Source: Geosiphon pyriformis uo1 (taxonomy: Eukaryota; Fungi; Glomeromycota). Taken from it: a stretch of DNA of 64,000 bases. The stretch lies in NCBI GenBank assembly GCA_016748015.1, contig JAAOMT010000348.1, positions 37,171-101,170 on the forward strand, given 5' to 3'. Below are positions 7,700 through 59,317 of the stretch, in pieces. The position numbers were made by a program, and so were the translations under genes. Positions within the stretch are counted from its first letter, which is position 1. Each line of letters opens with the position of its first letter. A model generated the notes under the pieces. The model was not told where the DNA came from. It did not search any database and was given only the letters and a program-made list of their open reading frames with translations.

Positions 7700-7701
7700 T
7701 T

Positions 7702-7719
7702 TGGTGCTCTCTCACAGAA
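7702..7719 (+). promoter_or_regulatory. Primer binding site of A1
   Basis: TGGTGCTCTCTCACAGAA 2 nt after the LTR; complementary to a tRNA 3' end (...CCA). Confidence 0.8.
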
Positions 7720-16738: not shown

Positions 16739-16881
16739 TTTAACATTTTTATAATAATCTCTTTAAAATACACAAAAATAGTAAATAATTACAAGAAACA
16801 TTCAAACCCAAAAACAAATAAAAACCCCATATTCAAAAAATAATTTTTTTTTATTCTTTTTATTAATTAGTCACTTTTATC

Positions 16882-18532: not shown

Positions 18533-21500
18533 GCAGACATTCCTACAATATTTCAGTAATAATAATAGCATCAACTGATTGGCAAACACTTTTACCATCA
18601 TTAAGCAAGGAGAAAATGAAGCAGTCACTACTTACTTAGGACACTTTCACAGAAATCTGCACCAAATTTAGGCAATCCAGGCTGATTATTTTACAGCACC
18701 CTAAATTCTAAATCAATTCATTTAAGATCTATGCAGTAGCATTTTTCAGTATGTATGCTCAATGCATTCAACAGATCTTCAAGCTGCAGTTACAAATGCA
18801 AGAGACTTTGAAGCAGCTGAATTAGAAGCCAATCACACTTAAGCAGTAAATTTAGTAATGAACAGATCATCTGAATTGGATTCCAAATTAAAACAATTTA
18901 GCAAATCAATTAATCAGAAATTAGAGCAGTACTTAGCTAACACCAATTAAGCAATTTATCAACCCCCACAATAATGCAACAATTAAAGAAATAAAAATTG
19001 CTTCCAAAATCAGTTGTGTCCAAAATCATCCTCGACCAATCAACAGTGGCTACAGGAAACATGTGCATACTATTATTGTGATAAACAAAAACATTTACAA
19101 TTTAAATGTCAAAGAAAGATAAGTGACCAGAGATCAGCTAATCAGTATTGAAACTTCAATCGCCGATTACAAACTCAGAATTATGTCAGTAATTAATCAC
19201 CAGAATAATATTAACCAAATTACGTACTTATGACACAGCAGCAAATTTATTAATCATCAATTTATCAACCAACAACACTTGTCATTTATTAACCACAGCC
19301 CTAACCCATTTATCAGCCATAATCTTAGGTAATTTATCAGCCCCAACAAATCCAAACACTCCCAAAACTTATCTTAAAATGGAACCCAAAGGCCAAAACT
19401 AATACAGCAAAGCTGAAAATCATCAATAGTAGTTCATTAACTAATCCTCAGTTTCTCTATACAACCATCAGAATTGCGACAATAGAATTTGGGCACCAAG
19501 TACACCCAAAACCTGAATTCTTAGAACTATTTAAGTCTCCTAGTCACCCCAAAAGACACTACATCCAACCACCTGGAATCCAACCAGAAACAGCCACTTA
19601 CCAGCAATATTTCACCAACAACTGTCATTAACAACAAGTTACTCACAGCTATCTTCCCATTCAAACTTGAAGAACTGACATCTACACCCTTGTTCAGTAG
19701 AGCTGCACTCAAAAAAAAACCAATTCCCACGATGTACACTGACACCAAAGTTGATGGTCATCTTATTAAATTGATCCTAGATAGTAGATCAGCTGGCAGC
19801 ATCATCACAAGACAGCTCATGGACCAATTAGGTTGCTGAGTTGATTGAACTGCCAGTGCAAGGATAATTACAGCTAATAAAACCACCAAGACTCCAATTG
19901 GTGAAATAGATAACTTGCCAATAGAAATCAATAGCATTACTGTACCAATCAAGGTATTAGTCATGGAAGCCACTCAATATCAAACACTCATGGACAATGA
20001 TTGGCTGTTTAAAATCAACATGACACTTTACTAGAACATCTAAGAGCTCCAGCTTAGCCAGAATAGATAATACACATGTGTACTAGCCATGTGTGGCCAC
20101 TTCAAATCCATTACTATGCCATCAGCTCCACTTATCAAATTCGAAGAAACCTATTTGGGAAGCCTATCAAGTATTCTTGGGCTGACAAAAACCACAATGA
20201 GCTACTACCAATATTTTTGTAAGACAATAATAAGAGAAAAAAAAAGGAAAAAGAAGAACTTACTTGGAATGCTGACTAAGTCTAGGAAACTAATAATAAT
20301 CAAGATGAATTAGCAAACTGGGAATGAGAAAAGACTGACAAGGAAAAAGAAACAATACCTACCAGCTCCTTTTATAATTACTACACCTACACTATACCAC
20401 AATAATCTACCTACTGTCGGCCAAAACTTATATGCATTGATTGCAGCAAAAAATTGTTATCAATAGGCACATGTTATGACGATAATAAGAAACATCAAAT
20501 GGCAACCAAATTTTACTGTTGTCCATACATCATAGAACACTTTGGACAATTAAAACAGCAAAGAAAATGGGACAATAAACTATGTCTCGCATGTGGAACT
20601 ATTTTGCCTAATGAAAAAATATGGAATGACATTTCTGGATGCAAAGGAATATGCGATGAGATGTGCCAGTATATGATTCTAATTAACAACTGGGTACACA
20701 AGGGAACACCAATTGATGACGCCTGGAAACAAGCATTGTGACAATTAGAAAGATATTCCCATAATGAAGATGAACTCTGGAGAATGACGAGTGTGAAAGT
20801 AGAGGATGCGACAACCAGTGAACTACTGGAAATCAAAAACAACTCTCTATTTTTTTCTAAATCTGAATACATCCAAACTTTTGATGTCTTTGGTAATATT
20901 GAGGATAACTCAAAAGAATTTCATGAATATTATCAGCAATTAGCATCTACTAGGAAAGAACAAGAGCAGCATTTAGAGCAGTTAAATACTCAATTATGTT
21001 AACATTGCTTAATTCTTTGTGACTTCCAGTATTGTAATGAGTGTGATCTCATTTATAATTTACCATCATACATAATCTACATGATTCCAGAAGAAGAACC
21101 AATCAGCAGCTGCACATCAGAATCAGAATCAGTTTTCAATTCCAATTCAAACTCCAACAATGTTGACAATAAAAACACCAGTTTTAGCTCTGCTCAATAT
21201 AGCAACAAAAATATCAATGATTCAGACTCTGATTTAAACCCCAGAATATACATCACACTTCTTGATCTTTTTAAGAAGCAGGAACTCAAATAGTATAGTG
21301 ACAATAATAAAGGTATTATGCCAGAATGTGTGCATAATATTGATGCAGGGTTTGATCTGAGATATTTGGGAAAAAAAGCCATCAAATTGGAACCAAATTT
21401 GTGCACATATATTGATTTCAAAATAGCTCTGGAAATTCTAACAACAACCATGATTCAATTAGCATCTAGGAGTAATTTAGTGAAAAAAAAATCAACATTA

Positions 21501-25587: not shown

Positions 25588-26451
25588 TATTATTCATAAA
25601 ATATAGAAAATATATTAGCATATAAATTAGCTAATCAGAAGTAGCCATAGTAAATGTGAAATTCTAGGATTCCTCTCAAGAGGAATTGCAGGATTTCAGG
25701 AATTTCAGGATTCTCATACAAGGAATTGCAGGATTCCAGAATTCTAAGATTCCTCCCAAAAGAAATTACAGGATTCCAGAAATTCCAGAATTTCTGGTGT
25801 AAAGAATTGAAAAATTAAGGAATTTCAAATATGTATATATAGCAGTAGTACTAGAAGTAGAAAAGACAGAATTCTTTAGTTAAAAAAAAAGACCTCTCAG
25901 TTTAGATTGGATCTGAGCAATCCTTCATATCACAAATAAATAATTATTTAATATCTCAAACCCACTTTCCATTATCAACACTTTATGTTGATAGTAATTG
26001 ATACTTAACCACACTGGAACAATAGCTCTTGATTATGGCTATTGACAGAATACTAACATTTATTGTCTTGGCTTATTTCTTTATTTTTCTTTTATTTTTT
26101 GTTATTTTTTTGTTGTTTACTAAATTGACTAAAAAATTAAGTGCTGAATTACAGACATTATAAAGACTGGTAAAAGACCTGTGAAACAAGGATAGAACAC
26201 TCATAGATTTGAAAATAGCTTACCAGAAAGATTACTGACCATCACACTGAGAAAAAAATTCGACAAAATTGAAATTCTAAAAGGCTACTAAAACAACTAT
26301 TAAATTTCTGCCTATTATACAAAAGACTCGACACCAAAACCTTCAGAACAATCAAACATTCAGATACCAACACCATCATCATAAATAGCTTCTAAGCACC
26401 AAGTTATGAGTTTGTTATTTGCTTTGAAATTCCAAATAATCACCTATAATA
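25588..26451 (+). repeat. Family B 3' LTR of B3
   Basis: Aligns end to end with 1783-2634; termini decayed to TA...TA. Confidence 0.88.
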
Positions 26452-33927: not shown

Positions 33928-34909
33928 TGTTACTGGAGGTTTTTGGTCTCTTTTCTCGAATGTTGTTAATGTTAATTTTGTTGTGAATTCATGTTTCCAG
34001 GAAGTAGTTGAACCTCCAGTAACTGAATTTTATCTTCAAATTATCTTCTATAATTTGAACTGCTGGGCTTATAAGTAGAATGACCAATTTTTTGCCAGTT
34101 ACTTTATGTAGTTATGTTGTAGTAAACATCAACTCTTTCCCAGGAATTGCTCGTCTGGAAGCTTACTAAAAATATGTGTAGTTACTTTGCTGTGAAAGTC
34201 AACTCTTCTACAGGAATCTCGTCTGTAGACTACCCTAATGATTGTAATAAGAAAAAAAAAGAAATATAAAAGAAATATAAAAGAAATAGAATTTTATAAA
34301 GAGAAACGTTTTTGATCCAGGCCTGGAATCACTAACAGTTTATTGAAATTGGTAGCTAATTAATTTCAAAATGTTAGTTGAGTTTTGGGGATTTTCCAAG
34401 TGTAATAATTAAAGAATTTGGTTTTTTAAATTATTTGATATTTATTTCTTTTGTGTGTGTAGAAATGGTTCTAAGTGATAAATCTAAAGTAAGATACATT
34501 TTCTCGAAGAGAGAAACTTTTTTTTTATACAACTTGTCATAACATTATTCTATGAACTTGAACTTTGCTATTTTCTACAATTTTGCTGAACTAAAGATAT
34601 ATTTTGGCAAACTACAAGTTATTTCTGTAAACTATTAGATATTTTGGTGAACTATCAATTATTTCGGCAAATTTCTATAAATTTCGGCAAATTTTTGAAT
34701 GTTACATAGTTCAGGGTATTGCATGATTGATCATCGCAATTAGGTTACATTTGTGTTGTGTACAATTTGGGTTATTAATTAAATGATAATTTCGGACATT
34801 TTTGCTAATGTAATGAATGGTAATTTGAAATGATAATATATGCTAATTACTGATAAGAATTATAAGATAGTTTCATGCTAAATAATATCTCTAATTTTGT
34901 CTGATAACA
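33928..34909 (-). repeat. A2 3' LTR
   Basis: TGTTACT...GATAACA on + strand, adjacent to the PPT complement TAACCTCCTCTTC. Confidence 0.95.
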
Positions 34910-35597
34910 TAACCTCCTCTTCAAGACTGAGCTCTATCGAAATCCAAGTACTGTTTGTTATTTCCAGATAATAATCCAAAATTATTGAAGAAATTTGGTC
35001 TGAAAATTGTTGAAATTTCAGTTCTGTGAGCTTTCCAATGTATTGAATCTTCAAAGGTTGAAAAATTGGGTTTTGTAGTACGTTTTCACAGGTGTAGAAT
35101 AGGTCATAAAGTCTAAGAGCAGCTCTGAGCCTGTAGCGACTGTTTGTTAATCCAGCTGTTGTCTTGAATTCGTTGTGGAGTTGTTTTTGAATAGCTTCTT
35201 TTGTGAGGTTTGCTGTTGTAAGTTCCAGTTTTCATTTGTAGAGTGTTTTTCCAATGTGAAAATATCTATAGATTGGAGGATATTCAGTGTTTTCCTCATT
35301 GAGACACAGTTGAAGTCTTTGTTGACTTGTAGCATTTGGTGGAATACTAATTGGAGTGAGCATTAGATTTTCTCTTAAAGCAAGCTTTAAAAGTTTTGGC
35401 AGGTGAATTCCAGTATAACTTCTTGTGTTCTTTTTATATGGGTGATATTTTCGTGAATTTGGGGCTAAATTTGTAACTACTTTTGTTTGGGTATAATTAA
35501 TGTGGTTTTCAGTAACAATAATGGATAATTTGTGTATTGTTTTTAAAGCTAACATTAGTTCTTGAGATAATTGTTGAATGTTTTGAGGAATAGTCAT
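34878..35597 (-). pseudogene. A2 accessory ORF3, 239 codons with a single internal stop
   Basis: MTIPQNIQQLSQEL...YFHIGKTLY(K*K)LEL...LRAALRLYDLF...IQYIGKLTELKFQQF...; one TGA at 35232-35234; frame runs through the PPT into the LTR. Confidence 0.8.
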
Positions 35598-35718
35598 TAT
35601 AAGCAATTTGAAATAAAAGAAAATTATTTTTGGTGCATGGGTTTTTATGTTATTTTTGTTTTGTTTTTGTGAGATTGTTTCTAAATTATAAGAAGATAAC
35701 TATAATAATAAATTTAAA

Positions 35719-37103
35719 TTAAGTGTTCAAGTTGGGAGACTGTTCAATGACAACTATTGGTTCTAAATTTCAGAGAATGTCTTCGGGATTGATTAAAAAA
35801 GAATGTGTACCAATTTGTGAAATTAATGGCTCATAATTGTTTCTGGAATTATAGTGTTTCAAATGATCTCTATGTGCAACTTTTGCTAGAATTTTGTCAT
35901 CAAGTCTTAGCTTGTATGATCTGTTGCCTAAAACTTTATGGATAAAGAATAGTCTATCCCATTTATTTTCAAATTTTCCACTCCATTGTTTTTTGCTTTA
36001 GTTCTGTGTAAGAGAACTTTGGTTCCAATTTTAAATTTATTAGTAACTGAAGGCAATTTGTCATTATGCCATTTTTTTTGTTGAGCTTGGGAGTGTTCAA
36101 TATGGGTGGCTGCTATTCATTGTTTTCTTTTCAATGTGCTAAGCAGAGTGTAGGCTCTTTGTTGAAGCATTTCTTGGAAATTGTTTTCATCAATTGGTTG
36201 TGCTGAGTATGTTTCCACTGTGAAACTAATTGGTAACGTTGCCGTTTTTCCGTAAGTTAAATCAAATGGTGTGTGTTTTGTGGTATCTTGTTTTAGTGTC
36301 CTATACGCTAATAACACTAATGGAATAAAGAGATTCCATTCTTGCTCAAAATCGGTTGAAACTTTAGCTAATGATTCACACAATGTTCTGTTGAACCGTT
36401 CTATTAGTTCATTTGTTTGTAGATAATAGGGTGAAGATAATGGTCTCTTGACATTAAATTGTCTACAAATTTCCTGGATTAAATTGTTCACAAAATGTGT
36501 TCCTTGATCAGATAAAAGTTTTATTGGGCATCCATGTCTACAAATGATGTCTTCATAGATGAAGTTTGCTATTGATTTTGCATCTGCCCATTGAATGGCT
36601 CTGGCTTCAGGCCATTTGGTGAGATAGTCTACGGCTATTGCAATATAGTGGTTTTCTTGGTTTGTGATAGGTAGTGGTCCAACTAAATCGATACCAACTC
36701 TGTCAAAAGCCTGTCCAACTTTGATTGGGTTTAAAGATTCTGTAGGGTGAGTTCCTCCTCTTCTTTAACAACTATTACAAGATTCAACATATTTGTGAAT
36801 GTTTTTTTTCATTCGAGGCCAAAAGTAGTATTCTAGTGTTCTTTGGGTGGTGCTGTCTTTTCCGAAGTGGGCTGATAAAGAATCTGAGTGCATGTTGTAT
36901 AATATAGTCTCTTTTTCTTGTTCTTGTATTAATCTGAGTGGTTTGTCTGAGTTTTTGAAATTTCGATAATAAATAATGTTGTTGTGTAGAAAATATTGTT
37001 TGGCTTGTTGTTGTAGTCAATGTTTTTCATTTGGAGACCAATCTGTTGGGATTGTTAATGTTTCTAAATATTGTTTGAGATTATTGTAGTTTTCTGAATT
37101 CAT
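35719..37103 (-). pseudogene. A2 ORF2 integrase with its own ATG
   Basis: MNSENYNNLKQYL..., MHSDSLSAHF...CNSC, GIDLVGPL, VDYLTKWPEA, SDQGTHF, ERFNRTL, LEPIVVIE. Confidence 0.9.
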
Positions 37104-37163
37104 TGTTTGTTGGCTCTTTTGGTTGGTTAAGTTGAGTGTTGGTTTTTGTGTTTTTTTTTTTTT

Positions 37164-40100
37164 CTAATCTTGTCTCATTCTGGAGAGACAGTCAACATTG
37201 GTGTGGAGTTTTCCTAGTTTGTGATGTACTATGTATTGGTAGTTTGTTAGAAATTCTGTCCATCGGGTTTGTTTTGCATTCAGCTAAGTATTTTTGTTCT
37301 GAAGCCATTTGAGTCCAATATTATCAGTGATAATATTGAATTCTTTAGGCTTGAGATAAAGGTTGAAGTGGTATAGGGCCCAAATTACGGCTGCTGTTTC
37401 TAGTTCTGTGGCAGGGTAGTTTTTCTCAGCTGGTTTTAATGTTCTGCTAGCATAAGCAATTACTCGCTCATTTCTGTTGTCATCTAGTTGTGATAAAATG
37501 GCACCAAAGGCAGTATACGAAGCATCTGTAGCTAATTGAAATTGGTTGCTGAAATCTGGGTAAGCAAGAATTGGAGCTGTTATCAGTTTTTCCTTGAGAA
37601 TTTCAAAAGCTTTTTGGTGTTCGGTAGTCTATTTGTATTTGACGTTTTTGGTGGTGAGCTGGTTGAGAGGTTTTGCAATTTCCGAGAATCCTTTAATAAA
37701 CTTCCAATAGTAGGATGCTAATTCTATGAATTCTCTTAGTTCTGTAGTATTTTGAGGAGTTTTGAAATTTTTGACAACGCTGATTTTTCCAGGGTCTGGT
37801 TTGATTCCATCTTTACTAACAATATGACTAAGGAAGATCAGGCTTGTTTTTCCAAAGTAGCATTTTTCAATATTGAGTTTTAGTTCTGCTTTTCATAATC
37901 ATTAAAAAACTTCTCACAGATGTTTTAAGTGTAATTCGAATGATGGAGAATAAACATTAGTATCGTCAAGATAAACAACTACTGACTTCCAAAGAAGTCC
38001 TTGGTACACAACATTCATTAATCTCTGAAATGTTGCTGGTGCATTGCATAATCCAAAAAGCATTACATTGAATTCGTAATTTCTGCCTTGGGTGGTGAAT
38101 GCTGTTTTGGGGTGATCTTTGAGATCCATAGCAACTTGCCAGTAACTGCTTTCTAAATCTAGTGTTGAAAAGTATTTGGATTTTCCAAGAGCATTTAACA
38201 TGTCATCAATCCAGAAAAGGGGGTAGGCATCTCCAATTGTAACACTGTTGAGTTGTTGATAGTCAACACAAAATTGGATCTTTCTATTTTTCTTTTTAAC
38301 TAGCACTACAGGTGAAGCCCAAGGACTCATAGAGGGTTGGATAAGCCCATTGTTAAGCATTCGTTGTATTTCTTCTCAGATGAATTGGTGGCTTTCTGGA
38401 ACAACTCGATATGCTTATTGTCTTCTTGGTTTGGCATCTTCTGTATAAATTTGGTGTTGGACTAAATTGGTTCTTCCTAAGTCATTGTTGTTTTCAGCAA
38501 AGATATCAGCAAATTCTGCAATTAGCTCTTTGAGCTGGGTCTGTTGTTGTGATTCAAGTTGTCCCATGTTAATTCGAGATAGTTTTTCCATGACAACATG
38601 GTAGTTTTCAGAGCTGGGATTTGAGTTGATTTTTGGTATTGAATGTCCAATAATTTCAGAGAAATCAGGGACTGTTTGGGGTAATTTTTGTTAAAATATA
38701 TTACTGTGAATAACTCCAATTTCTAAATTATTTAATAAAATTATGGGGTAATTATTGGGATTGTAAAAAGTAACTTGGACTTTCTTTGTTCCTTCTGGAA
38801 TATAAATATTTGGGATTGAAATATTATGTTCCAAGCAGACTTGTTCATTGGACTCAAAAATTTGTTGTGTGGTTGTTGGCTTTAGGCAGGTGTAGATTTC
38901 CAGATGTTCTCCAAAGAGTGAGATAGTAATCAGTTGTGGAAGTCTGAGAATCTGGTGAGATTTGTTCTGTGTATTAAGAGCTATATTAACTAGAACTGTA
39001 AATCGTCCAGTTGAACCAAAACCTTGGGTTCCTCTATTGCTTTTTCCTAATTGTTCTCTTTGATCAATTAGTTGCAAACCCAAAATATTGATTAAGGGTA
39101 GGTAAATAGCTTGAACAATTTTTTCAGCATGTTCAATCTTGAATAGTTTGTCAGTTTTGTTTTGAAGCATTACTGTAATGTCTCCAGTATATCCAGCATC
39201 AATTATTCCTCCTCTAACATTGATTTTTTTGCTTGCCAGAAAGAACCAGGAGGTGATTTGAACTATTGCTTCTGGCAGGATTTCGAGTGCAATTTTTAGG
39301 TTGATTTTTGTAAAGAATTTGGGTTTGAGAACAAGAGTATCCTTGCCTGGATATCTTAGGTCATATCCAGCATCAATTTTGTGTGCTTTTTCAGGTTTTA
39401 TTTCTTGTCCATTGTTGTTGAAGTATTTAAGTTGTAAGGCAGACTGATTTTCAATAAGATAGATAGGTGTTGTTTCACTTTCTTCTGTTGCTTCAGGTTC
39501 TCCAAATTCAATTTTGTTCTTATCATTTTTGCTGGGCAAGGGGATACTAAGAGTGTAGCATTCAGGACACCACTGTTCATCACAAGGCATAATGCATTCT
39601 TCACATAGCCTAATGTTTATTTGCTCTAATCATTGAATTTGAGCTTCTTGGATTGGGTAGGTGTGACTTGCAATTTGGTAGTAGACTTTTACTTCATCTT
39701 CGTAATTGAATCCAGCTACTTTCATGGTGTATTCAATGTATTCTGTTTCCTTCATTTGACAAACTTCTTCTTTGGTAGCTCCATTAATTAATGCCATTGC
39801 TAGATCAAAAATCATCTCAGCATCATGGGGGTAGTAATAAAGTTTGTTGAGAGCACTGTTGTATGTTGCATTAAAAGATGTTCTTCTTTTTACTTTTTCT
39901 GAAATTGATAAAGCATATTGGCAGGTCTGATTGCAGACTCCTCCTCTCATGGCTACATCAATCCAATTGTATTCTTCTGGTAGCATATCTCCACAAGTCA
40001 ACCAAGGGATGTTATCCCATTTTTCGCTCCTTTTTATTAGATGGCCCCATCATTCTCTGTAGCAAGCCTTGCAGTAATAACAAGTATGATTCTTATATTC

Positions 40101-42785
40101 TTCTTCAGGTGAAATGCGGGTTTCCATTGACGATAGTTTCTTGTGGCAGTCCTTACATTTAAGGGGAATATAGGGACGTTGTTTCCTTGGTTCGGGTTTT
40201 GAGTAAGGGATATTCCATCCAGAGGTTTTGGGTTTAGTGTGTGGGGTAAAATGTTTTTGTTCTGTTTCATCGGCCCAGTTGGACGTTAATCCAAGAGCCA
40301 TGAATGTTTCAATAAGGAGTTTTTTCTCTTCCAATTCGAATTCAAAAGCTGGGGCTTTTTCAGAGCATTTGTTGAATGTACCACAAGTGGCAAGTACCCA
40401 GGCATGTTGTCCTTGGTAGGAGATTGTTAACTCTTGTGTTTTCCAATTCAGATTAGCATTGGCTTTTTGAAGCCAATCATTTCCAACGAGAGCTTGGTAC
40501 TGGGGTGCATTCATTATAAGAACTTTGACTGGAATGGTGATTCCATCAAGAGTGAACAAAAAATTGTCAATTTCTCCTACTGGAGTCTTTTTCATGCCAT
40601 TGGCAGTGATGATTACTGTTTGAGCTGGTCAGTCAACATTTCTTTTCAACTGTTGCATTAACTGGTAGGTGATAATGCTTCTGGAGGATCCACTGTCTAG
40701 GATCAAGCAAATTGTCTTTTCTTTGACTTCAGCTTCAGTGTATATGGTCGTGATTGCTTTTTGTTCATTGGCAGCTGCATTGCTAAGCAGAAATGGTGAC
40801 TCATTTGCTTCGAACTCAAAAGGGAATATATTTGAAAGATTAGTGTTTTCAGCGATTCTGGCTGGTGAAATTGTGGTGGGAGTATAGGAAGGGTTTGGTT
40901 GTTGTTGTGCTGCAGCTCTACCTTCTAAGAGTGCAGTATAGTGAAAATCCTGTTCTTTCGGCATTGTTAAATAGCTGGGTTGAGTGTGGTAGTGGTTGAG
41001 TCTTGGCTGAGTGGAATTTCAGGGAACCAATTGGTTGTTCGAACTGATTCTATTGTTGTTTACTTGGTATCGGTTTTGTGATATGAATTGATTTTGTGTA
41101 ATCAGTCTTCGAGTAGATACTTGATAATATTGTGTAAGCAGTTGTTGGTATTGCTGTTGGATTGGCTATGGGGCTGGCTGATAATAGTTATTTTGGTATT
41201 GGAGTCTTGGTGGATAGTAAGTTGGTGGTGGTGATTGATAATAAAATTGTTGTGGTGGAGGGTAACGTTGATTACTCCTATTTTGTTGGTCTCATTGTAG
41301 CTTTCTGCAATCTCTTTTTCAGTGGTCAGAGATTCTACAGTAATGGCAATTCTGAGGCTTGTTATTGGAAAGTGGTGCAAAGTTATTTTGATTTCGTCTT
41401 TGGGGTGGTTGATATCTTTGGGGTTGCTGTTATTGTTGATTGGTGAAATAGTTTTCAACCTTTTTTGTGAGTTGGTCAATTTTTTTCTTGGCTGCTGAGC
41501 TGGTTTTTCCAATTGCCAAATTTACAAGTTTTGTGCGGTTGGCCTCTTCCATGACTATTTTGTATCTTTTCGCATGCTGTATGGCAGAGTTTAAATCTTC
41601 TGGTGCATATGGGCGAATCTTTTTAATTAGTTTATCTTTTAGACCAGTGATAAATTGATCCAAGATTTGAGCATCGGAATAATAATTGTTTGTTTTGAGT
41701 TGACAAATTTATCTGAGAAGTTTGTTGAATTTCCCAATATAAGTCATAACAGATTTGGGGGGTTCTTGTTTGATATTTTGAAAATGATTGCGAAGGGTGA
41801 TGGAGGTATTATTGTCGGTGAACTGTTCAAGGAAGACTGCTTTGAAAGTGTTCCAATTATTGAATGGGGCGGCCAAGTTTTCAAACCATTCTCCTGCTGT
41901 TCTTTTAAGAAAGTAGGGAATTGTTCTTAATATTCTGGCAGCATTCCATCCATTTGCATCTCCAGTTTTAGTAATTTGGTCGAGCCATTTTTGGGGACTG
42001 GTCTTAATATCTTTTCCATTGAATTCAGGGATTTTTGCAATGTATGTTGTCATTTTGTCTTCTTTCTTTTCACTGTCTATTGATTCTTCTTCAGTTATTT
42101 CAGAGTTGTTTTCTTTGTTTGCTGCTGTCTCAGAGTGTTCACTTTGATTTTCAGCTAGAAAATCAAGGAGATTGGAACTAGTTTGAAGGGGTTCTTGTTG
42201 TCTGATGAGACTTCTGAGTGCTGTAAAATCTTCTGGTCTTGCAAATCGATTTAAGGGTGAATTAGGTATTTGTGCTTGTGCAAGTGAAGCTGGAAAAGGT
42301 GTAATAGTAAGTGGAAGTTTTGAACTGGTTTCTTGTTCAGATGTTTGTAAATGGTTGGCAGTTGTTTTCGGTAGTGTTGGAATATTTGGGGTGGTTCTTG
42401 AGTATTGCTTCAATTTGTTTTTGCCTTTGTTGTTTGTTTCTGTTTCTGATTCAAAATCAATAGTGTATTGAGACTGCACTGGATATGTTTCTTCACAGTA
42501 TTTAATAATGTTGAAATTAAGTTTATGAAAGTAAATGGCAAGTGTTTCACTGTTAAGGTCTTTAGTTCCCAACTGTGAATAGTGTGCTAAATTATTGTAA
42601 AGGTTGCTTCTAACTTCTGAGATATTGTAATTTTCAAAAAGATAATTGTTGATGCAGTTTTCAATGTATTGGTATACTGATTTCTTAACAACTTCAATTC
42701 TGTCTGGAATGTTGAATCTTTGCTTGCAGTGGGTGTAAATTGATTGGTAATACTCTAGAGTTGTGGTGTCTGGTGTGGTTGCCAC
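37164..42785 (-). pseudogene. A2 ORF1: Gag-PR-Cys-rich-dUTPase-RT-RNase H, single frame of ~1874 codons with point stops
   Basis: ORF-track fragments starting at 42785, 41663, 40964, 40595, 40001, 39590 and 38360 share one frame; LILDSGS, YLDD, ATDAS, ends LSRMRQD*. Confidence 0.92.
39006..39431 (-). pseudogene. dut: dUTPase domain of A2
   Basis: DAGYDL, GGIIDAGYTGDI, EKIVQAI, RGTQGFGSTG. Confidence 0.93.
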
Positions 42786-42810
42786 TTTGAAGTTGTTTTT
42801 GCTGTGTTGT

Positions 42811-42828
42811 TTCCGTGAGAGAGCACCA
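42811..42828 (-). promoter_or_regulatory. Primer binding site of A2
   Basis: + strand TTCCGTGAGAGAGCACCA reads as a tRNA 3' end (T-stem half CCGTG, acceptor half AGAGAGC, A, CCA). Confidence 0.85.
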
Positions 42829-42830
42829 AA

Positions 42831-43813
42831 TGTTACTGGAGATTTTTGGTCTCTTTTCTTGAATGTTGTTAATGTTAATTTTGTTGTAAATTCACGTTTC
42901 CAAGAAGTAGTTGAACCTCCAGTAACTGAATTTTATCTTCAAATTATAGGAGATAATTTGAACTGCTGGGCTTATAAATGGAATAGCCAATTCCTTGCCA
43001 GTTACTTTATGTAGTTACATTGTAATAAATGTCAACTCTTTCCCAGGAATTGCTTGTCTGGAAGCTCACTAAAAATATGTGTAGTTACTTTGCTGTAAAA
43101 GTCAACTCTTCTACAAGAATCTCGTCTGTAGGCTACCCTAATGATTGTAATAAGAAAAGAAAAGGAAAAATAAAAGAAATGTAAAAGAAATAAGATTTTA
43201 TCAAGAGAAACATTTTTGATTCAGGCCTGGAGTTACTAACAGTTTATTGAAATTAGTAGCTAATCAATTTCAAAATGTTAGTTGAGTTTTGGGGATTTTT
43301 CAAGTGTAATAATTAAAGAATTTGGTTTTTCAAATTATTTGATATTTATTTCTTTTGTGTGTGTAGGAATAGTTCTAAGTGATAAATCTAAAGTAAGATA
43401 TATTTTCTCAAAGAGAAAAGCTCTTCTTTTATACAACTTGTCATAACATTATTCTATGAACTTGAACTTTGCTATTTTCTACAATTTTGCTGAACTAAAG
43501 ATACATTTCGGTGAACTACAAGTTATTTCTGTGAACTATAAGATATTTTGGTAAACTATCAATTATTTCAGCAAATTTCTATAAATTTCAGTGAACTTTT
43601 GAATGTTACATAGTTCGAAGTATTGCATGATTGATCATTGCAATTAGGTTACATTTGTGTTGTATACAATTTGGGTTATTAATTAAATGATAATTTCGGA
43701 CATTTTTGCTAATGTAATGAGTAGTAATTGGAAATGATAATATATGCTAATTAATGATAGGAATTATAAGATAGTTTTATGCTAAATGATATCTCTAATT
43801 TTGTCAGGTAACA
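42831..43813 (-). repeat. A2 5' LTR
   Basis: TGTTACT...GGTAACA adjacent to the PBS. Confidence 0.95.
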
Positions 43814-48780: not shown

Positions 48781-49763
48781 TGTTACTGGAGGTTTTTGGT
48801 CTTTTTTTTTAATGGTTGTTGATACTTGTTTGCTGTAAATTCACGTTTTCTGGATGTAGTTGAACCTCTAGTAACTGAATTTATCTTCAAATTATCTCCT
48901 ATAATTTGAACTGCTGGACTTATGAGTGGAATGACCAATTCTATGCCAGTTACTTTATGTAGTTACATTGTAGTAAACGTCAACTCTTTCCCAGAAATTG
49001 CTCATCTGGAAGCTCACAAAAAAATGTAGTTACTTTGCTGTGAAAGTCAACTCTTCTACAAAAATCTTGTCTGTAAGCTACCCTAATAATTATAGTAAGA
49101 AAATAAAAGAAAATAAAAGAAAAGTAAAAGAAATAGAATTCTGTCAAGGGAAACATTTTCTATCCAGGCCTGAAGTTACTAACAATTTTACTGAAATTGG
49201 TAGCTAATCAATTTCAAAACGTTAGTTGAGTTTTTTTTTGGAATTTTCAGGTGCAATAATTAAGAAAGTTGACTTTTTGAATTATTTGATTTTTATTTCA
49301 TTTTTGTAAGAACAATTCTAATTAATAAGTCTCAAATAAGATATCTAAAGGTAAAGAATACATTTTCTTGAAAAAAAAGGCTCTTCTTTTATACAATTTG
49401 TTGTAGTACTAGTCTATGAACTTGAACTATTTTCTTTACTATGGTTTTGACAAACTAAAGATATCTTTCGGTAAACTTACAAGTTATTTTTATGAACTAT
49501 TGAATATTTCAGTGAACTATTAATTATTTCAGCGAATTTCTACAAATTTCGGCAAACTCTTGAATGTTAAATGGTTTGGGGTATTGTGTAATTTGATCAT
49601 TTTACTTTCTATAGTACAAATTAGGTTATTAATTGATTGATAATATTCGATAATTTGATTAAATAATAAGTGATAATTTGAATGATAATATATGCTAATT
49701 TAATAGTAGAAATTATAAGGGTAATATTATGTTAATTAATATCTCAAGTTTTGGTTGGTAATA
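48781..49763 (-). repeat. A3 3' LTR
   Basis: TGTTACT...GGTAATA next to the PPT complement. Confidence 0.92.
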
Positions 49764-50451
49764 TAACCTCTTTCTCAAGATTGAGCTCCATTGAATTCCA
49801 AGTACTGTTTGCACATTCTAGATAGTAATCCAAAATTACTGAAAAAATTTGGTCTGAAAATTGTTGAAATTTCAGTTCTGTGAGTTTCCCAATGTATTGG
49901 ATCTTTAGTGATTGTAAACTTGGGTTTTGTAGGACATTTTTACAGGTGTGAAATAAGTTATAAAGTCTAAGAGCTGCTCTAAGTTTGTAGCAACTGTTTG
50001 TTGGTCCAGCCGTTGTCTTAAATTCATTGTAGAGTTGTTTCTAAATGGCTTTTTTTGTAAGATTGGCTGTTGTGAGTTCTAGTTTTTGTTTATGCAGTGT
50101 TTTTCCAATGTGAAAATATCTATAGATTGGAGGGTATTTATTGTTTTCTTCATTAAAACACTGTTAAAGTTTTTGTTAAATTGTGGCATTTGGTAGAATG
50201 TCAATAGGTGAGAGCAACAAATTTTCTCTCAAGGCAAGCTTCAAAAGTTCTGGTAGGTAAATTCCAGAATAACTTCTAGTGTTTTTTTTATAAGAGTGAT
50301 AATTTCGTGATTTTGGGAATAAGGTTGTGGCTGTTTCTGTTTGAATATAATTAATATGTTTTCTTGTAATAGTAATAGATAATTCAGGTATTGTTTTTAA
50401 AGTTAACATTAGTTTTTGGGATAATTGTTGAATGTTTTGTGAAATAGTCAT
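49744..50451 (-). pseudogene. A3 accessory ORF3
   Basis: MTISQNIQQLSQKL...LRAALRLYNLF...IQYIGKLTELKFQQF. Confidence 0.78.
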
Positions 50452-50570
50452 TATAATGATTTTTAAGAAACTAAAAATTTTCCTAAGTGAAATTATTTTT
50501 GGATATGTGGATTTTTATGTTATTTTTGTAGGATTGTTTCTGAATTTTTATAGGAAAATAACTGTAGTAA

Positions 50571-51964
50571 TTAAGTGTTTAAGTTGGGAGGTTGTTCAAT
50601 AATAACTATTGGTTCCAAATTTCAGGAAATATCTTTAGGATTAATTAAAGGAGAATATGTACCAATTTGTGGGATTAATGGTTCAGGATGTGTTCTGGAG
50701 TGATAATGTTTCAATTGATCTCTATGTGCAACTTTTGTTAGTATTTTCCCATCAAGTCTTAACTTATATAATCCATTTCCTAAAATTTTGTGAACAAAGA
50801 ATAGTCCATCCAATTTATGTTCAAATTTTCTACTCTATTGTTTTTCAGCCTTAGTTTGATGTAAAAAAACTTTATTTCCAACTTTAAATTCGTTTGTAAC
50901 TGGTGGTAGTTTGTTGTCATGTCTTTTTTTTTATTGGGCTTGTGAATTTTTAATGTAGGTGGCTGCTATACGTCTTTTTTTTTCTAAAGTACTAAGAAGA
51001 ATATAAGCTCTTTGCTGAAGTGTTTCTTGTAAGTTTTCTTCTGTGATTGGTTGTACTAGATATGTTTTCACTGTGAATTCAATTGGTAATTTTGCTGTTC
51101 TTCCATAAGTAAGGTCAAATAGTATGTGTTTTGTTGTATCTTGTTTTAGTGTTCTATATGCTAGTAACACTGATAAAATAAAGATATCCCATTCTTGCTC
51201 AAAATCTGTTGAAATTTTGGCTAGTGATTCACACAATGTTCTGTTAAAATGTTCTATTAATCTATTTGTCTGTGGATGGTAAGGCGAAGATAAAGGTCTT
51301 TTGATATTAAATTATTTACAAATTTCTTGTATCAGGTTGTTCACAAAATGTGTTCCCTGATCGAATAAAAGTTCAATTGGGCATCCATGTTTACAAATAA
51401 TATTTTCATAGATAAAATTTGCTACTGATTTTGCATCTGCTCATTGAATAGCTCTGAGTTCAGGCCATTTGGTAAGATAATCTATTACTACTGCTATGTA
51501 TTAGTTTCCTTGCATGGTGATAGGTAGCAGTCCAACTAAATTGATACCAACTCGATCAAAAGATTGTCCAACTTTGATTGGATTTAAAGGTTCAGTAAAG
51601 TGTGTTTCTCCTCTTCTTTGACAACTATCACAAGATTCAACATATTGATGTATGTCTCTTTTCATTCAGGGCCAAAAATAGTATTCTAGTATTCTAGTAT
51701 TCTTTGGGTGGTGCTGTCTTTTCCAAAGTGTGCTGATGAAGGATCTGAGTGTATATTGTATAATATAGTCTCTTTTTTGTGTTTTTATATTAATCTGAGT
51801 AGTTTGTTTGTGTTTTTGAAATTTCAATGATAAATAATGTTGTTGTATAGAAAATATTGTCTGGCTTGTTGTTGTAATCAATGGTTTTCATCTGAAGACC
51901 AATCTGTTGGGATTGTTAATGTCTTCAAATATTGTTTAAGATTGTTGTAGTCTTTTGAATTCAT
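50571..51964 (-). pseudogene. A3 ORF2 integrase with its own ATG
   Basis: MNSKDYNNLKQYL..., CDSC, DQGTHF, DGLFFVHKILGNG. Confidence 0.88.
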
Positions 51965-52004
51965 TGTTTGTTGGTTGTTAGATTTGAGTGTTGATTTGTG
52001 TTTT

Positions 52005-55000
52005 CTAATTTTGTCTCATTCTGGAGAGACAGTCAACATTGGTGTGGAGTTTTTCTGGTTTGTGATGTACTACATATCAGTAGTTTGCTAAAAATCCTGT
52101 CTATTTGGTTTGTTTTGCATTCAACTTCATGTTTTTGTTTTGTAACCATTTGAGTCCAATATTATCAGTGATAATATCGAATTTCTTAGGTTTGAAATAA
52201 AGGTCAAAGTGGTGTAAGACCCATATTACTGCTGTGATCTCTAATTCTGTTGTTGGGTAGTTTTTCTCTGCTGGTTTTAATGTTCTACTTGCATAAACAA
52301 TTACTTGTTCATTGCTATTGTCATTTATTTGTGATAAAATGGCATCAAAGGCAGTATAAGAGACATCTGTGGCTAATCAGAATCGGTTGCTAAAGTCTAG
52401 GTAGGTAAGAATTGGAGCTGTAGTGAGCTTTTTTTTGAGTATTTTGAAGGTGTTTTGGTATTCCATCCATTTGTATTTGGTGTTTTTAGTGTTGAGCTGG
52501 TTAAGGGGTTTTGCTATTTCCGAAAATCCTTTGATGAATTTCTGATAATAAGAAGCTAATCCAACAAATTCTCTTAGTTCTGTGGTATTTTGTGGAACTT
52601 TGAAATTCTTAACAGCGCTGATTTTTTCTGGGTCTGGTTTGACTCCTTCTTCTCTAACTATGTGACCAAGAAAGGCCAAGCTTGTTTTTCCAAAATGACA
52701 TTTTTCGATGTTTAATTTTAATCTTGCTTTACGTAATCATTGAAAAACTTCTTACAGGTGAATTAGATGAAGTTCGAAAGATAGAAAATAAATGTCAGTG
52801 TTATTAAGATAGACAACTACTGATTTCCAAAAGAGTCTAGTGTATACAACATCCATGAGTCTTTGGAATGTTGCTGGCACATTGCATAATCTAAAGGGCA
52901 TTACATTGAATTTGTAGTTTTCTCATTGTGTTGTAAATGCTGTTTTAGGGCAATTCTTGAGATCCATGGCAACTTACCAGTATCCACTTTCTAAATCTAA
53001 TGTTGAAAAGTATTTGGATTTTCCAAGTGCATCTAACATATCATTGATTCAGAGAAGGGGGTAGGCATCTTCAATTGTGACATTGTTCAGTTGTTGATAA
53101 TTAACACAAAATCGGATTTTTCCATTTTTCTTTTTAACAAGTACTACTGATGAAGCCCATAAGCTCATTAATGGTTGGATGAGCCCATTGTTGAGTATTT
53201 TTTGAACTTCTTCTCGAATAAATTGGTGGCTTTCTGGGGCAACTCAGTATGCTTGTTGTCATCTAGGTTTAGCATTTCCTGTATAGATTTGATGTTGAAC
53301 CAAATCAGTTCTTTCTAAATCAATGATGTTTTCAGCAAATATGTCTGTATGTTCTGCAATTAACTCCTTGAGCTGATTCTGTTGTTGGGGCTTTAGTTGT
53401 CCCATGTTAATTTGGAATAACTTTCCAATAACAATGTGATAGTTTTCAGAGCTGGGTTTTGAATTGAATTTTGGGAGAGAATGTCTAATAATTTCCGAAA
53501 AATTCAAAACTGTTTGAAGTAATTCTTGTTAAAAGATTTTGCTATGAATAATTCCAATTTCCAAATTATTTAGTAAAATGATGGGGTGATGATTGAGGTT
53601 GTAAAAAGTAATTCGGACTTTTTTTATTCCTTTTGGAATATAAATGTTTAGAATTGAGATGCCATGTTTCGTGCAAATTTGTTTATTGGCTTCGAAGATT
53701 TGTTGAGTAGTGGTAAGTTTTCCACAGGTATAAATTTTGTGATGTTTTCCAAAGGGTGAAATGGTTATTGGTTGTAGAAGTCTGAAAATCTGGTGAGATT
53801 CATTCTGTGTATTGAAGGCTATATTAACTGAAACCATAAATCGTCCAGTTGAACCAAAACCTTGGGTTTTTCTCTCATTTTTCCCTAATTGTTCTCTTTG
53901 AATAACTAATTGCAAACCCGAAATGTTGATTAAGGGTAAATAAATAGCTTGAGCAATCTTTTCAGTGTGTTTAATCTTGAATGGTTTGTCAGTTTCATTT
54001 TGAAGCATTACTGTAATATCTCTAGTGTATCCAGCATCAATAATTCCTCCTCTTATGTTGATTCCTTTGCTTGCTAGGGAAAATTGGGAGGCAATTTGCA
54101 ATATCATTCTTGGTGGGATTTTAAGGGCAATTTTTAGATTAATTCTCATAAGGGATTTTGGTTGAAGAATGAGGGTATCTTTTTCTGAATATCTTAAATC
54201 ATATCTAGCATCAATTTTGTGGGCTTTCTCAGGCTTGATTCCTTGTCCTTTATTGTTGAAGTATTTGAGTGTTATAGCAGGTTGATTTTCGGCAAGATAA
54301 ATAAGAGTTACTGGGACTTTTTCATCCTGTATTCTAAATTTGATTTTGTGCTGGTCATCTTTAATTGGTAGTGAGATGCTAAGAGCATAGCATTCAGGAC
54401 ACCACTGTTTATCACAAGGCATAATGTATTCTTCACATAGCCTAATGTTTATTTGCTCTAATTATTGAATTTGAGCTTCTTGGGTTGGGTAGATGTGACT
54501 TGCAATTTGGTGGTAAACTTCTATTTTATCTTCGTAATCAAATTCAGCTAATTCTATGATGTATTTAATGTATTCTGTTTCCTTCATTTGATGGACATCT
54601 TCTTTGGTAGCTTTATTAATTAATGCCATTACTAGGTCGAAAATCATCTCAGCATCATAGAAGTAGTGATAAAATTTGTTAAGAGCACTGTTATATGCTG
54701 CATCAAAGAATGTTCCTCTTTTGACTTTTTTTGAAATTGATAAAGCATATTGGCAGGTTTGATTGCAGACTCCTCCTCTCATTGCTACATTAATTCAATT
54801 GTATTCTTCTGGTAGCATATCTCCACAAGTCAAACAAAGAGTGTTGTCTTATTTTCCACTTTTTTTTATTAGATGGCCCTATCGTTCTCTGTGGCAAGCC
54901 TTGTAGTAATAACAAGTATGATTTTCATATTCTTCTTCAGGTAAAATGCAGGCTCCCATTAATGAAAATTTTTTGTTATAATCTCTGCATTTAAGTGGAA

Positions 55001-57563
55001 TGTAGAGTAATTGTTTTCGTGGTTCTGGTGTAGAATATCTAACTTTCTTCCATCCTCTTGATTTTTCAAAGATTTCTTGTTCTGTTTTCTCAGCCCAATT
55101 GGATGTTGATCCAAGAGCCATGTAGATTTCAGTAAGTGGCATTTCTTTCTCTTCTTCAAATTCAAGTACTGGAACTTTTTCTGATTGTTTATTGAAAGTT
55201 CTACACGTAGCAGATACTATGATGTGTTGTCCTTGATATGAAATTTTTAATTCTTGAATTTCCCAATCTAAATTTGCATTGGTCTTGAGAAACCAATCAT
55301 TTTTGATGAGAGCTTGGTATTGGGGTGCATCCATGACTAGAACTTTAACTGGAATAGTGATTCCATCAATGGTGAATAGAAAATTATCAATTTTTCTTAC
55401 TGGTGTCTTCTTCATACTATCTGCTGTAATGATAACAGTTTGAGCTGGTTTGTCAACAGTTTGTTGAAGCTGTTGTATTAATTGGTAGATAATAATACTT
55501 CCAGCAGATTCATTGTCTAATATTAAGCGAATTGGTTTTCCTTCTACATCAGCTTCAGTATACATTGCTGTAATAGCTTTTTGTTTGTTAACTGCTACAT
55601 TGCTGAGTAGAGATGGTAATTCATTGGCTTCAAATTCGAATGGAAAGATGTCTGAAAGATTGGTGTTCTGGGCAATTCTGGCTGGTGAGATAGTATTGTT
55701 GGAAGAGTTTTGTCTTGGTGCTGCAGTTTTACTTTCAAAAAGTGCAGTTTGCTGAAAATTTGATTTCTCTGGTATTGTAAGATAACTGGGTTGAGTGTGA
55801 TAGGGTGTGGGTCTATGTTGATTCGAATTTTGAGTGGTTAATTGGTTGTTGAAATTAAATCTGTTGTTGTTTGTTTAAAAACGGTTTTGTGGTGTAAATT
55901 GATTATGTTGAATCAATTTTCTAGCTGGCACTTGATATTGTGGTGTAGATGGTTGTTGATACTGTTGTTGGATTGGTTGTGGAGCAGATTAATAATAGTG
56001 GTTTGAATATTGTGGCCTTGGTAAATATTGAGCTAGTAGTAATAGATAATATAATTGTTGTAATTGAAAATAATGTTGATTATTCCTCTGTTGTTGGTCT
56101 TGTTGCAATTTTCTACAATTGTATTTCCAGTGTCTTGGAATTCCACAATAATGACAATTTTGGATTTGGTTGTTGGATGGTGGTCCGAAGTTATTTTGAT
56201 TGTGTCATTGTGGGGGTTGGTATCTTTGTGGTTGTTGTGATTGCTGTGGCTGTTGTTGTTGTTGTTGGTTGGTAAAGTAGTTTTCAACTTTTTTGGTTAA
56301 TTGGTCAATCTTTTCTTCAACTGCTGAGCTGGTTTCTCCAATAACCAGATTAACAAATTTGGTATGGTTGGCTTCTTCCATGGCCATTTCATAGTTTTTT
56401 GCCTGTTGAATAACAGTGGCTAAATCTTCTGGTGCATGTGGGCAAACTTTCTTGATAAGTTTGTCTTTTAGTCCAACAATGAATTGATCCAAAATTTGTG
56501 CATTGGAGTAGTATTCATTTGTTTTCAATTGGTGAATCCTTCTAAGCAGTTTGTTGAATTTCCCAAGATAGGTTATAACTGATTCACTTGGTTCTTGCTT
56601 AATATTTTGGAACCAATTTCGAAGGGTAATGGAAGTGTTATTGTTAGTAAACTGTTCTAGGAAAGCAGTTTTAAATGCTTCCCAGTTTTCTGGTGAGGCT
56701 TCCAAGTTTTCAAACTATTCGCCAGCTGTTCCTTGTAAGAAATATGAAATTGCTTTTAACATTCTGACAGCATTCCAACCATTTGTATCTCCTGCTTTTG
56801 AGACTTTGTCAAGCCATTCTTGAGGACTGGTTTTGCTGTCTTCTCCTGTGAACTCAGGGATTTTTGTGATATATGTGGAGGCCATTTCTTTTTTGTTTTC
56901 TGAGTCTTCTGTTTCTTGTTCTGATTCAGTCTTTTCACTTTAATTTTCTGCTAAGTAGTCAATAAGGTTTGTGCTGGTTAATATTGGTTCCTGTTGTTGA
57001 ATAGGGCTTTTGGGTGACTGAAAATCTTCTATTCTTAAAAACCAAATAAGTGGTAAGCTTGGTGTTTGTGGTTGAGCAAGTAAAGTGGAAAATGGTGTGA
57101 TTGAGAGTGGTAATTTAAAGCTGGTTCTTTGTTCTGGAGTTTGTAAATGTTTGGTAGTGGTTTTAGGTGTATTGGGAGTAGTTCTGAGTTTTTGTTTCCT
57201 TTTTTCTTTTCCTTCTTCTGTTTCCGATTCAAAACTAAAAGAAAATTTCTGTTCTACTGGATAATTCACTTCACAATACTGAATGATATTGAAGTTGAGT
57301 TCTTGGAAGTATGTTTTAAGTATTTGACTGTTAAAATCCTGAGTGTTTAGACGAGAGTAATGTATTAAGCTTTCATATAAGTTGTGTCTAACTTCTGAAA
57401 TGTTGTAGTTTCTAAGAAAATAATTGTTAATGTAATTTTCAATGTACTAATAAAGTGTTTTTTTGAATGTTTCAATTCCATCTGAGATGTTAAATCTCTG
57501 CTTACAGTGGGTGTAGATTGACTGATAATACTCTAGAGTTCTTGAATCTGTTTGAGTCGCCAC
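52005..57563 (-). pseudogene. A3 ORF1: Gag-PR-Cys-rich-dUTPase-RT-RNase H
   Basis: ORFs 56205-56705 (capsid), 54879-55565 (protease), 53529-54422 (dUTPase), 52377-52679; ends LSRMRQN*. Confidence 0.9.
53844..54269 (-). pseudogene. dut: dUTPase domain of A3
   Basis: DARYDL, SLASKGI, GGIIDAGY, EKIAQAI, QGFGSTG. Confidence 0.92.
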
Positions 57564-57609
57564 TTTTAAAGTTGTTGTCACTGTATTATTTTTGTAGAAA
57601 AGTACCAAA

Positions 57610-58581
57610 TATTACCAGAGGTTTTTGTTCTTTTTTCTTAATAGTTGTTGATGCCTGTTTGCTGTAAATTCACGTTTTCTGAATGTAGTTGAATCTTCAG
57701 TAACTGATTTTATCTTCAAATTATTTTCTATAATTTGAATTGCTGGGCTTATGAGTAGAATGGCCAATTCCATGCCAGTTATTTTATGTAGTTATGTTGT
57801 AATAAACATCAACTCTTTCCCAGGAATTGCTTGTTTGGAAGCTCACAAAAAAATGTAGTTACTTTGCTGTGAAAGTCAACTCTTCTATAGGAATCTCGTC
57901 TGCAGGCTACCCTAATAATTATAGTAAGAAAATAAAAAAAAATAAAAAAAAATAAAAAAAATGTAAAAAAAATAGAATTCTATCAAGAGAAACGTTTTCT
58001 ATCCAGGCCTGGAGTCATTAACAGTTTTACTGAAATTGGTAGCTAATCAATTTCAAAACGTTAGTTGGGTTTTTTTTTGGGATTTTTAGGTGCAATAATT
58101 AAGAAAGTTGACTTTTTGAATTATTTGATTTTTATTTTGTTTTTGTGAGAACAATTCTAATTAATAAGTCTCAAGTAAGATATCTAAAGGTAAGAGATAC
58201 ATTTTTTTGAAGAGAAAGGCTCTTCTTTTATACAATTTGTTGTAGTACTAGTCTATGAACTTGAACTATTTTCTTTACTATGGTTTCAACAAACTAAAGA
58301 TATTTTTTGGTAAACTTACAAATTATTTCTATGAACTATTAATTATTTCAGCAAATTTCTACAAATTTTGGCAAACTCTTGAATGTTAAATAGTTCGGGA
58401 TATTGTGTAATTTGATCATTTACTTTCTATAGTACAAATCAGGTTATTAATTGATTGATAATATTCGATAATTTGATTAAATAATAAGTGATAATTTGAA
58501 CAATAATATATGCTAATTTAATGGTAGAAAATATAAGGGTAATATTATGTTAATTAATATCTTAAGTTTTAGTTGGTAATA
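57610..58581 (-). repeat. A3 5' LTR
   Basis: TATTACC...GGTAATA, followed by TSD GTGG. Confidence 0.92.
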
Positions 58582-59317
58582 GTGGTGTTAAACTTTATTG
58601 AGCAAGAATAAATCTGGTTCAGTGTGAGAAATGTGAGAAGTTTGGTCATTCTGCTTTGGAATGTAATGCACCAGTTGCATCTATTTCTAAGTCTTCAAAA
58701 ATATTTAAAAAGGTTGCATCTAATAAACATTGTCTTCAGTTGGCAAAGTTATATGAAAAAAAAAGTGTTCCAATATCTTGCCCTGCTGTCTTTGGTGGCA
58801 AATCTTGGGCCCAGGTGGTCTTACTTACTGGTTTTTTTGATAGTCTTTGCTTCACTTCTGGTTCTGGTTCCCCTTTCTCTGACACCTCAGATTTGAAAAA
58901 TGGTTTTCTTCTTGTTTTGGTTGACAACTCATTTTTGGATGCTTGTTTGGCCTCTTTAAAACAATCCTTGAAGCTATTAACTGACCAAGTTTCTGGCATT
59001 GTGCACAAGCTCAACAACATGGAATTGGTGCCACAAGCTCCATCTCTATTCTTTAAAGTCTTGGCTACTTTGATTGCTGCCAAAGAGAATTTGGCTTTAG
59101 ATATGATTGTGGATGGTCCTGAACTGGTACTTTTGTTCTCTTTTTCTGCTTTCCCTAGTGTTTTAACTTTGGGTCTAAGTAGTTCAAAAGTCTTGATAAC
59201 CAAGATTGGCAGTTTGGAATCTAAGTTGGTGGCTCTTGAGGCTTCTGTTGGTTCAGTTTTGGCAAAGTTAGATTATTTGTGTGCTGGTTTGGGTCCCTTG
59301 TTATCTTCTTTATCTCA

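Follow-up and report, generated by a model that had tools for sequence, protein, structure and literature searches.

The Cys-rich domain of element E39

The 64,000-nucleotide stretch analysed here (the window; contig JAAOMT010000348.1 of Geosiphon pyriformis uo1, positions 37,171 to 101,170) has a G+C content of 28.5% and is composed of nested repeats. Its minus strand carries E39 (33928-43813), a decayed Ty3/gypsy long terminal repeat (LTR) retrotransposon of ~9.9 kb with gag and pol in one frame. Between the protease and the dUTPase of this element, a family A Cys-rich domain of 205 codons with two internal stops was delimited by profile and frame (39558-40172, minus strand); it is read in the frame of gag, protease, dUTPase, and reverse transcriptase (RT). 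A multi-Cys domain of ~200 residues had been placed here by a preliminary description of the sequence, and was recovered. The evidence that this is a real Pol insert, conserved, selected, and of no catalogued family, is strong. In the literature searched it is undescribed, an accessory domain of an element type that is itself known.

Cys occupies 14 of the 205 positions of the E39 domain, compared with 15 of 1362 in the rest of the protease-to-integrase span (binomial p 9e-8). Exactly four copies were retrieved from the window by profile, at the positions previously indicated, the next row having an E-value of 0.25. Besides the E39 copy, these are a second family A copy (54390-55004, minus strand) in the recombinant element E54 (48783-58581), a third (12410-13021, plus strand) in element E12, and a family B copy (20421-21044, plus strand) that is 36% identical to the E39 domain. 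The paired Cys said to be conserved across both families were confirmed, as 14 of the 17 Cys columns modal in family A are common to A and B versus 83 of the 197 other columns (Fisher p 0.0017).

The LTRs of E39 (33928-34909 and 42831-43813; 982 bp) are 92.4% identical, 63 of their 74 differences being transitions. The element has TG...CA termini and is flanked by a near-matching 4-bp pair, ATGG/ATGA. Its single frame, interrupted by stops only, runs through gag, protease, Cys domain, dUTPase, RT, RNase H, and integrase core. By domain order, LTRs, and target-duplication flank, E39 is a Ty3/gypsy LTR retrotransposon, and the dUTPase between protease and RT places it among the dUTPase-bearing gypsy elements. 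The aspartic protease (40392-40751) was recognized by an ILDSG motif and weak Pfam rows in E39, with Asp_protease_2 reaching E 1e-4 in the sister copy E54. It is followed by the Cys domain, an acidic, variable linker (39447-39557; 47-58% identity among family A copies), the dUTPase (39006-39440; PF00692, E 1.3e-14), and RT (37752-38450; RVT_1, E 1.7e-22), with RNase H and the integrase core (rve, E 1.5e-10) downstream, all on the minus strand. Gag holds a CCHC knuckle of its own.

Three further stretches of E39, all on the minus strand, gave no Pfam match. The gag frame begins inside the 5′ LTR (42063-42950), with a long N-terminal region ahead of the capsid that is kept in other copies. Between dUTPase and RT, 135 codons (38601-39005) are under purifying selection, the ratio of nonsynonymous to synonymous divergence (dN/dS) being 0.21. 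Beyond the integrase, an extra frame of ~230 codons with one stop (34906-35600) reaches the edge of the 3′ LTR. A degenerate second dUTPase fold 3′ of the dUTPase was considered and rejected, the likeness being faint and limited to a 22-residue match in one of three sequences.

Distribution, conservation, and selection

Elements of other Glomeromycota were covered through protein databases. With the family A domain, the best 120 of 291 matches were all G. pyriformis gene models, as were 103 of 103 matches with the family B domain. Searched with a profile, 1.84 billion representatives yielded 394 matches at E ≤ 0.001; this search and the first search of PDB sequences (see below) were limited by the profile used, alignment A1, which has 199 positions and apparently lacks the first knuckle. 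Among the best 150 of these matches, 23 were already-known Geosiphon models and 127 were new. Twenty of the new ones were identified, 19 as Geosiphon and one as an ENA record (P0253). P0253 is a stop-free protein of 1064 residues with protease (Asp_protease_2, E 2.7e-9), Cys domain, dUTPase (PF00692, E 2e-20), and RT, and its domain was ~43% identical to the best Geosiphon match at the time of comparison. When P0253 was used as query against longer proteins, 7 of 130 candidates matched, namely itself and six Geosiphon models, among which a third family, C, was recognized. Pairwise identity among the four lineages (A, B, C, and P0253) is 34-48%.

In total, 359 of 360 domain proteins were tallied, after two wrong-frame translations had been dropped; four of the rows are translations from the window. 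Wherever the neighbours are present, the protease lies upstream of the domain (98/98) and the dUTPase downstream (124/124). Both neighbours occur in 17 of the 359 proteins and neither in 154, the latter probably being gene models cut short in decayed copies rather than free genes. Apart from P0253, the observed distribution is narrow, being limited, among the matches identified, to G. pyriformis. The preliminary description had called for a search for free-standing host or viral homologues; none was found in the searches run. Short-pattern scans gave 596 and 20 pattern matches in JGI metagenomes, none of them confirmed, and 76 and 1 in IMG/VR and 58 in GTDB genomes, with no relative among them, which, given the shortness of the patterns, counts as weak evidence; tblastn in phages likewise returned no relative. 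No description of the domain was present in the literature searched, which comprised few subscription papers, no supplements, and none of the Geosiphon genome papers, nor in the accessible part of preprint 10.1101/2023.09.13.557621.

The four lineages have the same commonest residue in 58 of 214 columns, 13 of which are Cys. Conservation of the Cys in a wider alignment, a check set beforehand, therefore held. The 13 common Cys fall into three groups, C-x2-C-x24-C-x2-C, C-x2-C-x19-C-x3-C, and C-x2-C-x3-C-x4-C-x2-C, and His is absent from the 58 columns. In the alignment, the window copies keep 12, 10, 10, and 12 of the 13, each having lost one to three. The Cys at column 19, common to A and B, is not kept in P0253. 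A KKL motif is common to all lineages. Of the anchors proposed earlier, KKLSSM and GKWDN stood as family-modal motifs, although they occur exactly in only one and none, respectively, of the four window copies. With 19-23 Lys and Arg against 30-37 Asp and Glu, the domain is net acidic in all four representatives; the finger region carries roughly no net charge, and in P0253 and family C a basic run stands ahead of the first finger.

Against E12, dN/dS of the domain was 0.17 (0.09-0.28) for the E39 copy and 0.21 (0.13-0.32), in the range of its neighbours (protease 0.13-0.15, dUTPase 0.17-0.25, RT and RNase H 0.18). The proportion of nonsynonymous differences (pN) was below that of synonymous differences (pS) in all five sub-regions of the domain. 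In frame, pN/pS values were 0.18/0.60, compared with 0.25/0.35 and 0.24/0.30 in the shifted frames, where the contrast was mostly lost. Judged by these substitution patterns, the domain is under purifying selection. Trees of domain and protease for 25 selected proteins showed the same family split, and trees of domain and dUTPase for 20 of 42 eligible proteins (10 of the 32 family A members kept) the same families; P0195, a poor long-branch row, was misplaced in the domain tree. Given this agreement at the family level, the domain is older than the split of these families.

The E39 and E54 domains differ less than their surroundings (dN/dS 0.48 at a dS of only 0.23). Third-position mismatches number 30 in 205 within the domain, versus 76 in 189 upstream (p 1e-8) and 56 in 182 downstream (p 2e-4), and therefore E54 received its domain block from an E39-like donor. 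E54 (minus strand) is a mosaic, E12-like ahead of the domain, E39-like within it, and E39-like again in a block matching 37330-36750; the edges of the swap coincide with the edges of the domain. As linker type and domain subtype are fully linked in 26 of 26 typable gene models, the swap is regarded as one event. An arms race as a general explanation of the likeness between E39 and E54 was rejected on account of the single swap and the second similar block at 37330-36750.

Elsewhere in the window, 6741-18535 holds a number of LTRs from the same families, nested within or lying next to one another. The two LTRs flanking E12 match at only 76%, and this element may therefore be composite. A decayed element at 58580-64000 (plus strand) reads by eye like a non-LTR retrotransposon, having a knuckle-bearing first frame followed by endonuclease-, RT-, and RNase H-like stretches; Pfam gave weak knuckle rows only. 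A 40-bp tandem repeat in three to four copies occurs at 1854-2009 and 25660-25792, in two related elements. The window holds an assembly gap of 402 N (3654-4055), and a search of its whole length against Rfam gave zero matches. In the accessible text of PMC11952901, LTR sequence of all families together is put at 41.2% of the Geosiphon genome.

Predicted fold and comparison with known families

No family was assigned to the domain by Pfam, applied to the open reading frames of the window and to 24 and 26 alignment members, or by PHROGs, applied to four sequences. Two profiles run against PDB sequences reached E-values of 0.13 and 0.077 at best, and a feature-based search of the ESM Atlas gave best scores of 0.82 and 0.84 with no common family. 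As the preliminary description had supposed, Pfam on the members and on P0253 revealed no routine annotated Pol spacer. The lack of any matching database family would also be expected of a neutral linker or a chance Cys-rich stretch, a reading contradicted by the purifying selection, the preferential conservation of Cys, the stop-free homologue at ~43% identity, and the folded model described below; we consider it extremely improbable.

A first structure model, built on a decayed record of family A, was of low quality, with a mean predicted local distance difference test score (pLDDT) of 55.4; searches of PDB and BFVD with it gave nothing at E ≤ 0.001 and a Z-score of 5.5 at best. A second model was obtained with AlphaFold2 for P0253 with 26 sequences (pLDDT 72.3, predicted template modelling score 0.55). 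In this model, Cys 7, 10, 35, and 38 form a predicted finger 1 and Cys 59, 62, 82, and 86 a predicted finger 2, located at knuckles and helix starts, with hairpins at 20-22/32-34 and 73-75/79-81 and helices at 36-43 and 84-97. In E39 (minus strand), the two putative treble-clef-like fingers correspond to 40062-40157 (C-x2-C-x24-C-x2-C, its four Cys common to the four lineages) and 39921-40004 (C-x2-C-x19-C-x3-C, its first Cys lost in this copy), separated by a spacer of ~18-20 residues. They are followed by a predicted helical bundle (39723-39920), where the model is most confident (helices 102-154, pLDDT block means 81-95; residues 81-140, 83-95). The third Cys cluster (39558-39605), with five Cys common to the four lineages, falls in the low-confidence C-terminus (residues 198-216, pLDDT < 50).

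A treble clef is defined by knuckle, loop, beta-hairpin, and helix, with one pair of Cys in the knuckle and another where the helix begins (PMC4999995). Fingers 1 and 2 are predicted to have this topology, in the model. With Foldseek, nothing was found at E ≤ 0.001; the weak top rows were the two-finger DNA-binding domain of GATA3 (E 0.092, probability 0.38), LIM proteins, and the finger of Rim2 (probability 0.94, root-mean-square deviation (rmsd) 1.8 over 39 columns, E 0.88). Residues 1-51, containing finger 1, aligned weakly to eS26 (Z 4.4, rmsd 3.2, 50 aligned), Rim2 (Z 4.1, rmsd 2.0, 41 aligned), and FYVE, as well as to chains that we take to be L24-like and ZZ-bearing. E6 and PHD-like rows also occurred among the weak matches, and a wide fold search reached a Z-score of 5.0 at best, on the helices, which is uninformative. 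Thus, topology and a consistent set of weak rows speak for the fold class, without a significant match. Zinc binding by such folds is well established, and the Cys of fingers 1 and 2 are predicted to bind zinc. Of the several zinc fingers suggested earlier, these two are predicted by the model, the third cluster having low confidence; likewise, the structure prediction proposed as a check gave a folded model, and its Foldseek part gave no significant match.

Signature patterns were compared with the 359 proteins. The spacing of zf-FCS/MYM fingers (TRASH clan), C-x2-C-x14-30 followed by C-x3-C, fits finger 2, a loose form of it being present in 114 of the 359 proteins, most of which are partial. 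In zf-FCS, an F-C-S motif surrounds the third Cys (PMC4047054); it is present at that Cys in 0/359 proteins, in which VCD, TCD, VCN, and ICD are commonest, and no Pfam row was obtained. The LIM pattern, with its His ligand and two-residue spacer between fingers, occurred in 0/359 (one Pfam row, E 0.57), the RING cross-brace in 1/359, PHD in 0/359, and the CCHC knuckle C-x2-C-x4-H-x4-C in 1/359. A PHD-like family, PF13771, matched one protein only, below threshold (E 0.0065; 17.1 bits versus a cut-off of 29.1). A His inside finger 2 was found in 5/359, and the signature of His-Me finger nucleases, a conserved catalytic His on the hairpin (PMC4999995), is thus absent. GATA spacing, C-x2-C-x17-18-C-x2-C, occurs in 65/359 proteins across the two predicted fingers, which themselves have x24 and x19/C-x3-C, and the middle four Cys may alternatively pair in this GATA-like manner. 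With RING, PHD, LIM, FCS, and CCHC failing and the domain net acidic, the E3-like, chromatin-reading, and nucleocapsid-like roles are left without support, and the first two of these, suggested in the preliminary description, were not borne out.

Nucleic-acid binding, also suggested there, was weakened by the charge of the domain. The fingers could bind element RNA, primer tRNA, or cDNA directly, as a second nucleocapsid-like or a GATA-like module, joined to the dUTPase or not. A GATA3 DNA-binding domain as the top Foldseek row, the alignment of finger 1 to the RNA-binding ribosomal fingers eS26 and L24-like, the KKL motif of all lineages, and the basic run before finger 1 in two of them are in line with this. 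However, all these structural matches are below significance, no GATA Pfam row appeared at E ≤ 5 in 26 members, the finger region is about neutral within a net acidic domain, and gag already has a CCHC knuckle; direct nucleic-acid binding is judged unlikely.

Together, the domain shares with the treble-clef fingers zf-FCS/MYM, GATA, LIM, eS26, and Rim2/FYVE a predicted topology, here in tandem (PMC4047054, PMC4999995). It differs from them in lacking F-C-S, the LIM His, GATA spacing inside a predicted finger, and a significant match, and in adding an unmatched helical bundle and a five-Cys cluster.

Possible roles of the domain

The evidence for any single role is thin. We tentatively favour, at somewhat less than an even chance, a 205-residue accessory Pol domain of two predicted treble-clef zinc fingers and a predicted helical bundle that acts as an adaptor, joined to the dUTPase and holding this enzyme in the particle during reverse transcription. 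The protease would leave Cys domain and dUTPase joined, and the Cys domain would bind another component of the particle. Because the domain is net acidic, the partner would more probably be a protein (RT, integrase, or capsid) than RNA. Local removal of dUTP would then result in less uracil in the cDNA. The dUTPase motifs of P0253 look intact.

Precedents are found in part. In the sources available, gypsy elements of fungi, planarians, and rotifers include some with a dUTPase between protease and RT (PMC2864245, PMC6431247, PMC5408684), and what the enzyme does in LTR retrotransposons is called unclear (PMC2864245). PosPlaTy3-5 of Postia placenta, a dUTPase-bearing fungal Ty3/gypsy element, has the same order, but the accessible descriptions of elements of this type mention no 200-residue Cys domain before the dUTPase and treat them as chromodomain-bearing, whereas no chromodomain was seen by eye after the integrase of E39 (PMC2864245, PMC6431247). 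In the betaretroviral nucleocapsid-dUTPase, a zinc-finger module is directly N-terminal to the dUTPase, as here, and was proposed to bring the enzyme to the site of RT activity; that module is a basic nucleocapsid of 81-95 residues, joined by frameshift, whereas the Geosiphon domain is separate, net acidic, all-cysteine, and 205 residues long (PMC4531489). Juno LTR elements of bdelloid rotifers likewise have an extra zinc module beside the dUTPase between protease and RT, but it is a single knuckle and lies 3′ of the dUTPase instead of 5′ (PMC5408684).

Several points weigh against the adaptor. The domain is tied to the dUTPase only by adjacency and travels equally with the protease, and the acidic, variable linker to the dUTPase may be cleaved. 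It is net acidic, whereas the betaretroviral nucleocapsid cited as precedent is basic. The block in E54 was swapped independently of both neighbours, which is not what one would expect of tight pairing with a single dUTPase allele. Finally, the first model had a low pLDDT (55.4), the third cluster is of low confidence, Foldseek with the second model found no significant match, and the fold matches are weak (Z 4.4 and 5.0).

As the domain directly follows the protease in 98/98 cases and shares its tree, it might instead serve in assembly or processing, as a folded module governing protease dimerization or particle packing, like protease-adjacent spacers. Gag and pol lie in one frame in E39, and the domain would therefore be made in amounts equal to the capsid, unless expression is otherwise regulated. 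Three conserved Cys clusters and surface aromatics exceed what a spacer needs, however, and we regard such a role as improbable.

A host-facing module for counter-defence or reading, binding chromatin, SUMO/ubiquitin, or a silencing protein and aiding escape from repression, was judged unlikely. Tandem zinc domains with helices are adaptors elsewhere, and weak LIM, E6, Rim2, and PHD-like fold rows and the sub-threshold PF13771 row were obtained. The window is CpG-poor (observed/expected 0.175 over its whole length), as methylation would lead one to expect; between families, the domain changes faster than its neighbours (36% identity versus 53-61% for protease, RT, and integrase), and one swap has its edges at the domain edges. 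On the other hand, RING, PHD, and FCS signatures are practically absent, dN/dS against E12 is well below 1 in every sub-region, and the swap is single, in view of the 26/26 linkage and the similar block at 37330-36750. Targeting domains usually sit by the integrase, from which this domain is far. That the domain stands for a new family of tandem treble-clef effectors, cut out of the polyprotein by the protease to bind a silencing or chromatin factor of the host, and that it helped these elements to overrun a heavily CpG-depleted genome, seems improbable.

The reach of the findings is one species, apart from the P0253 record. Within it, the domain family accounts for hundreds of Geosiphon gene models now called hypothetical. 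If unrelated zinc modules have come to stand beside the dUTPase more than once, in retroviruses and in rotifer and fungal elements, tethering would be a convergent solution, for which the domain, large and stop-free in P0253, offers a test case.

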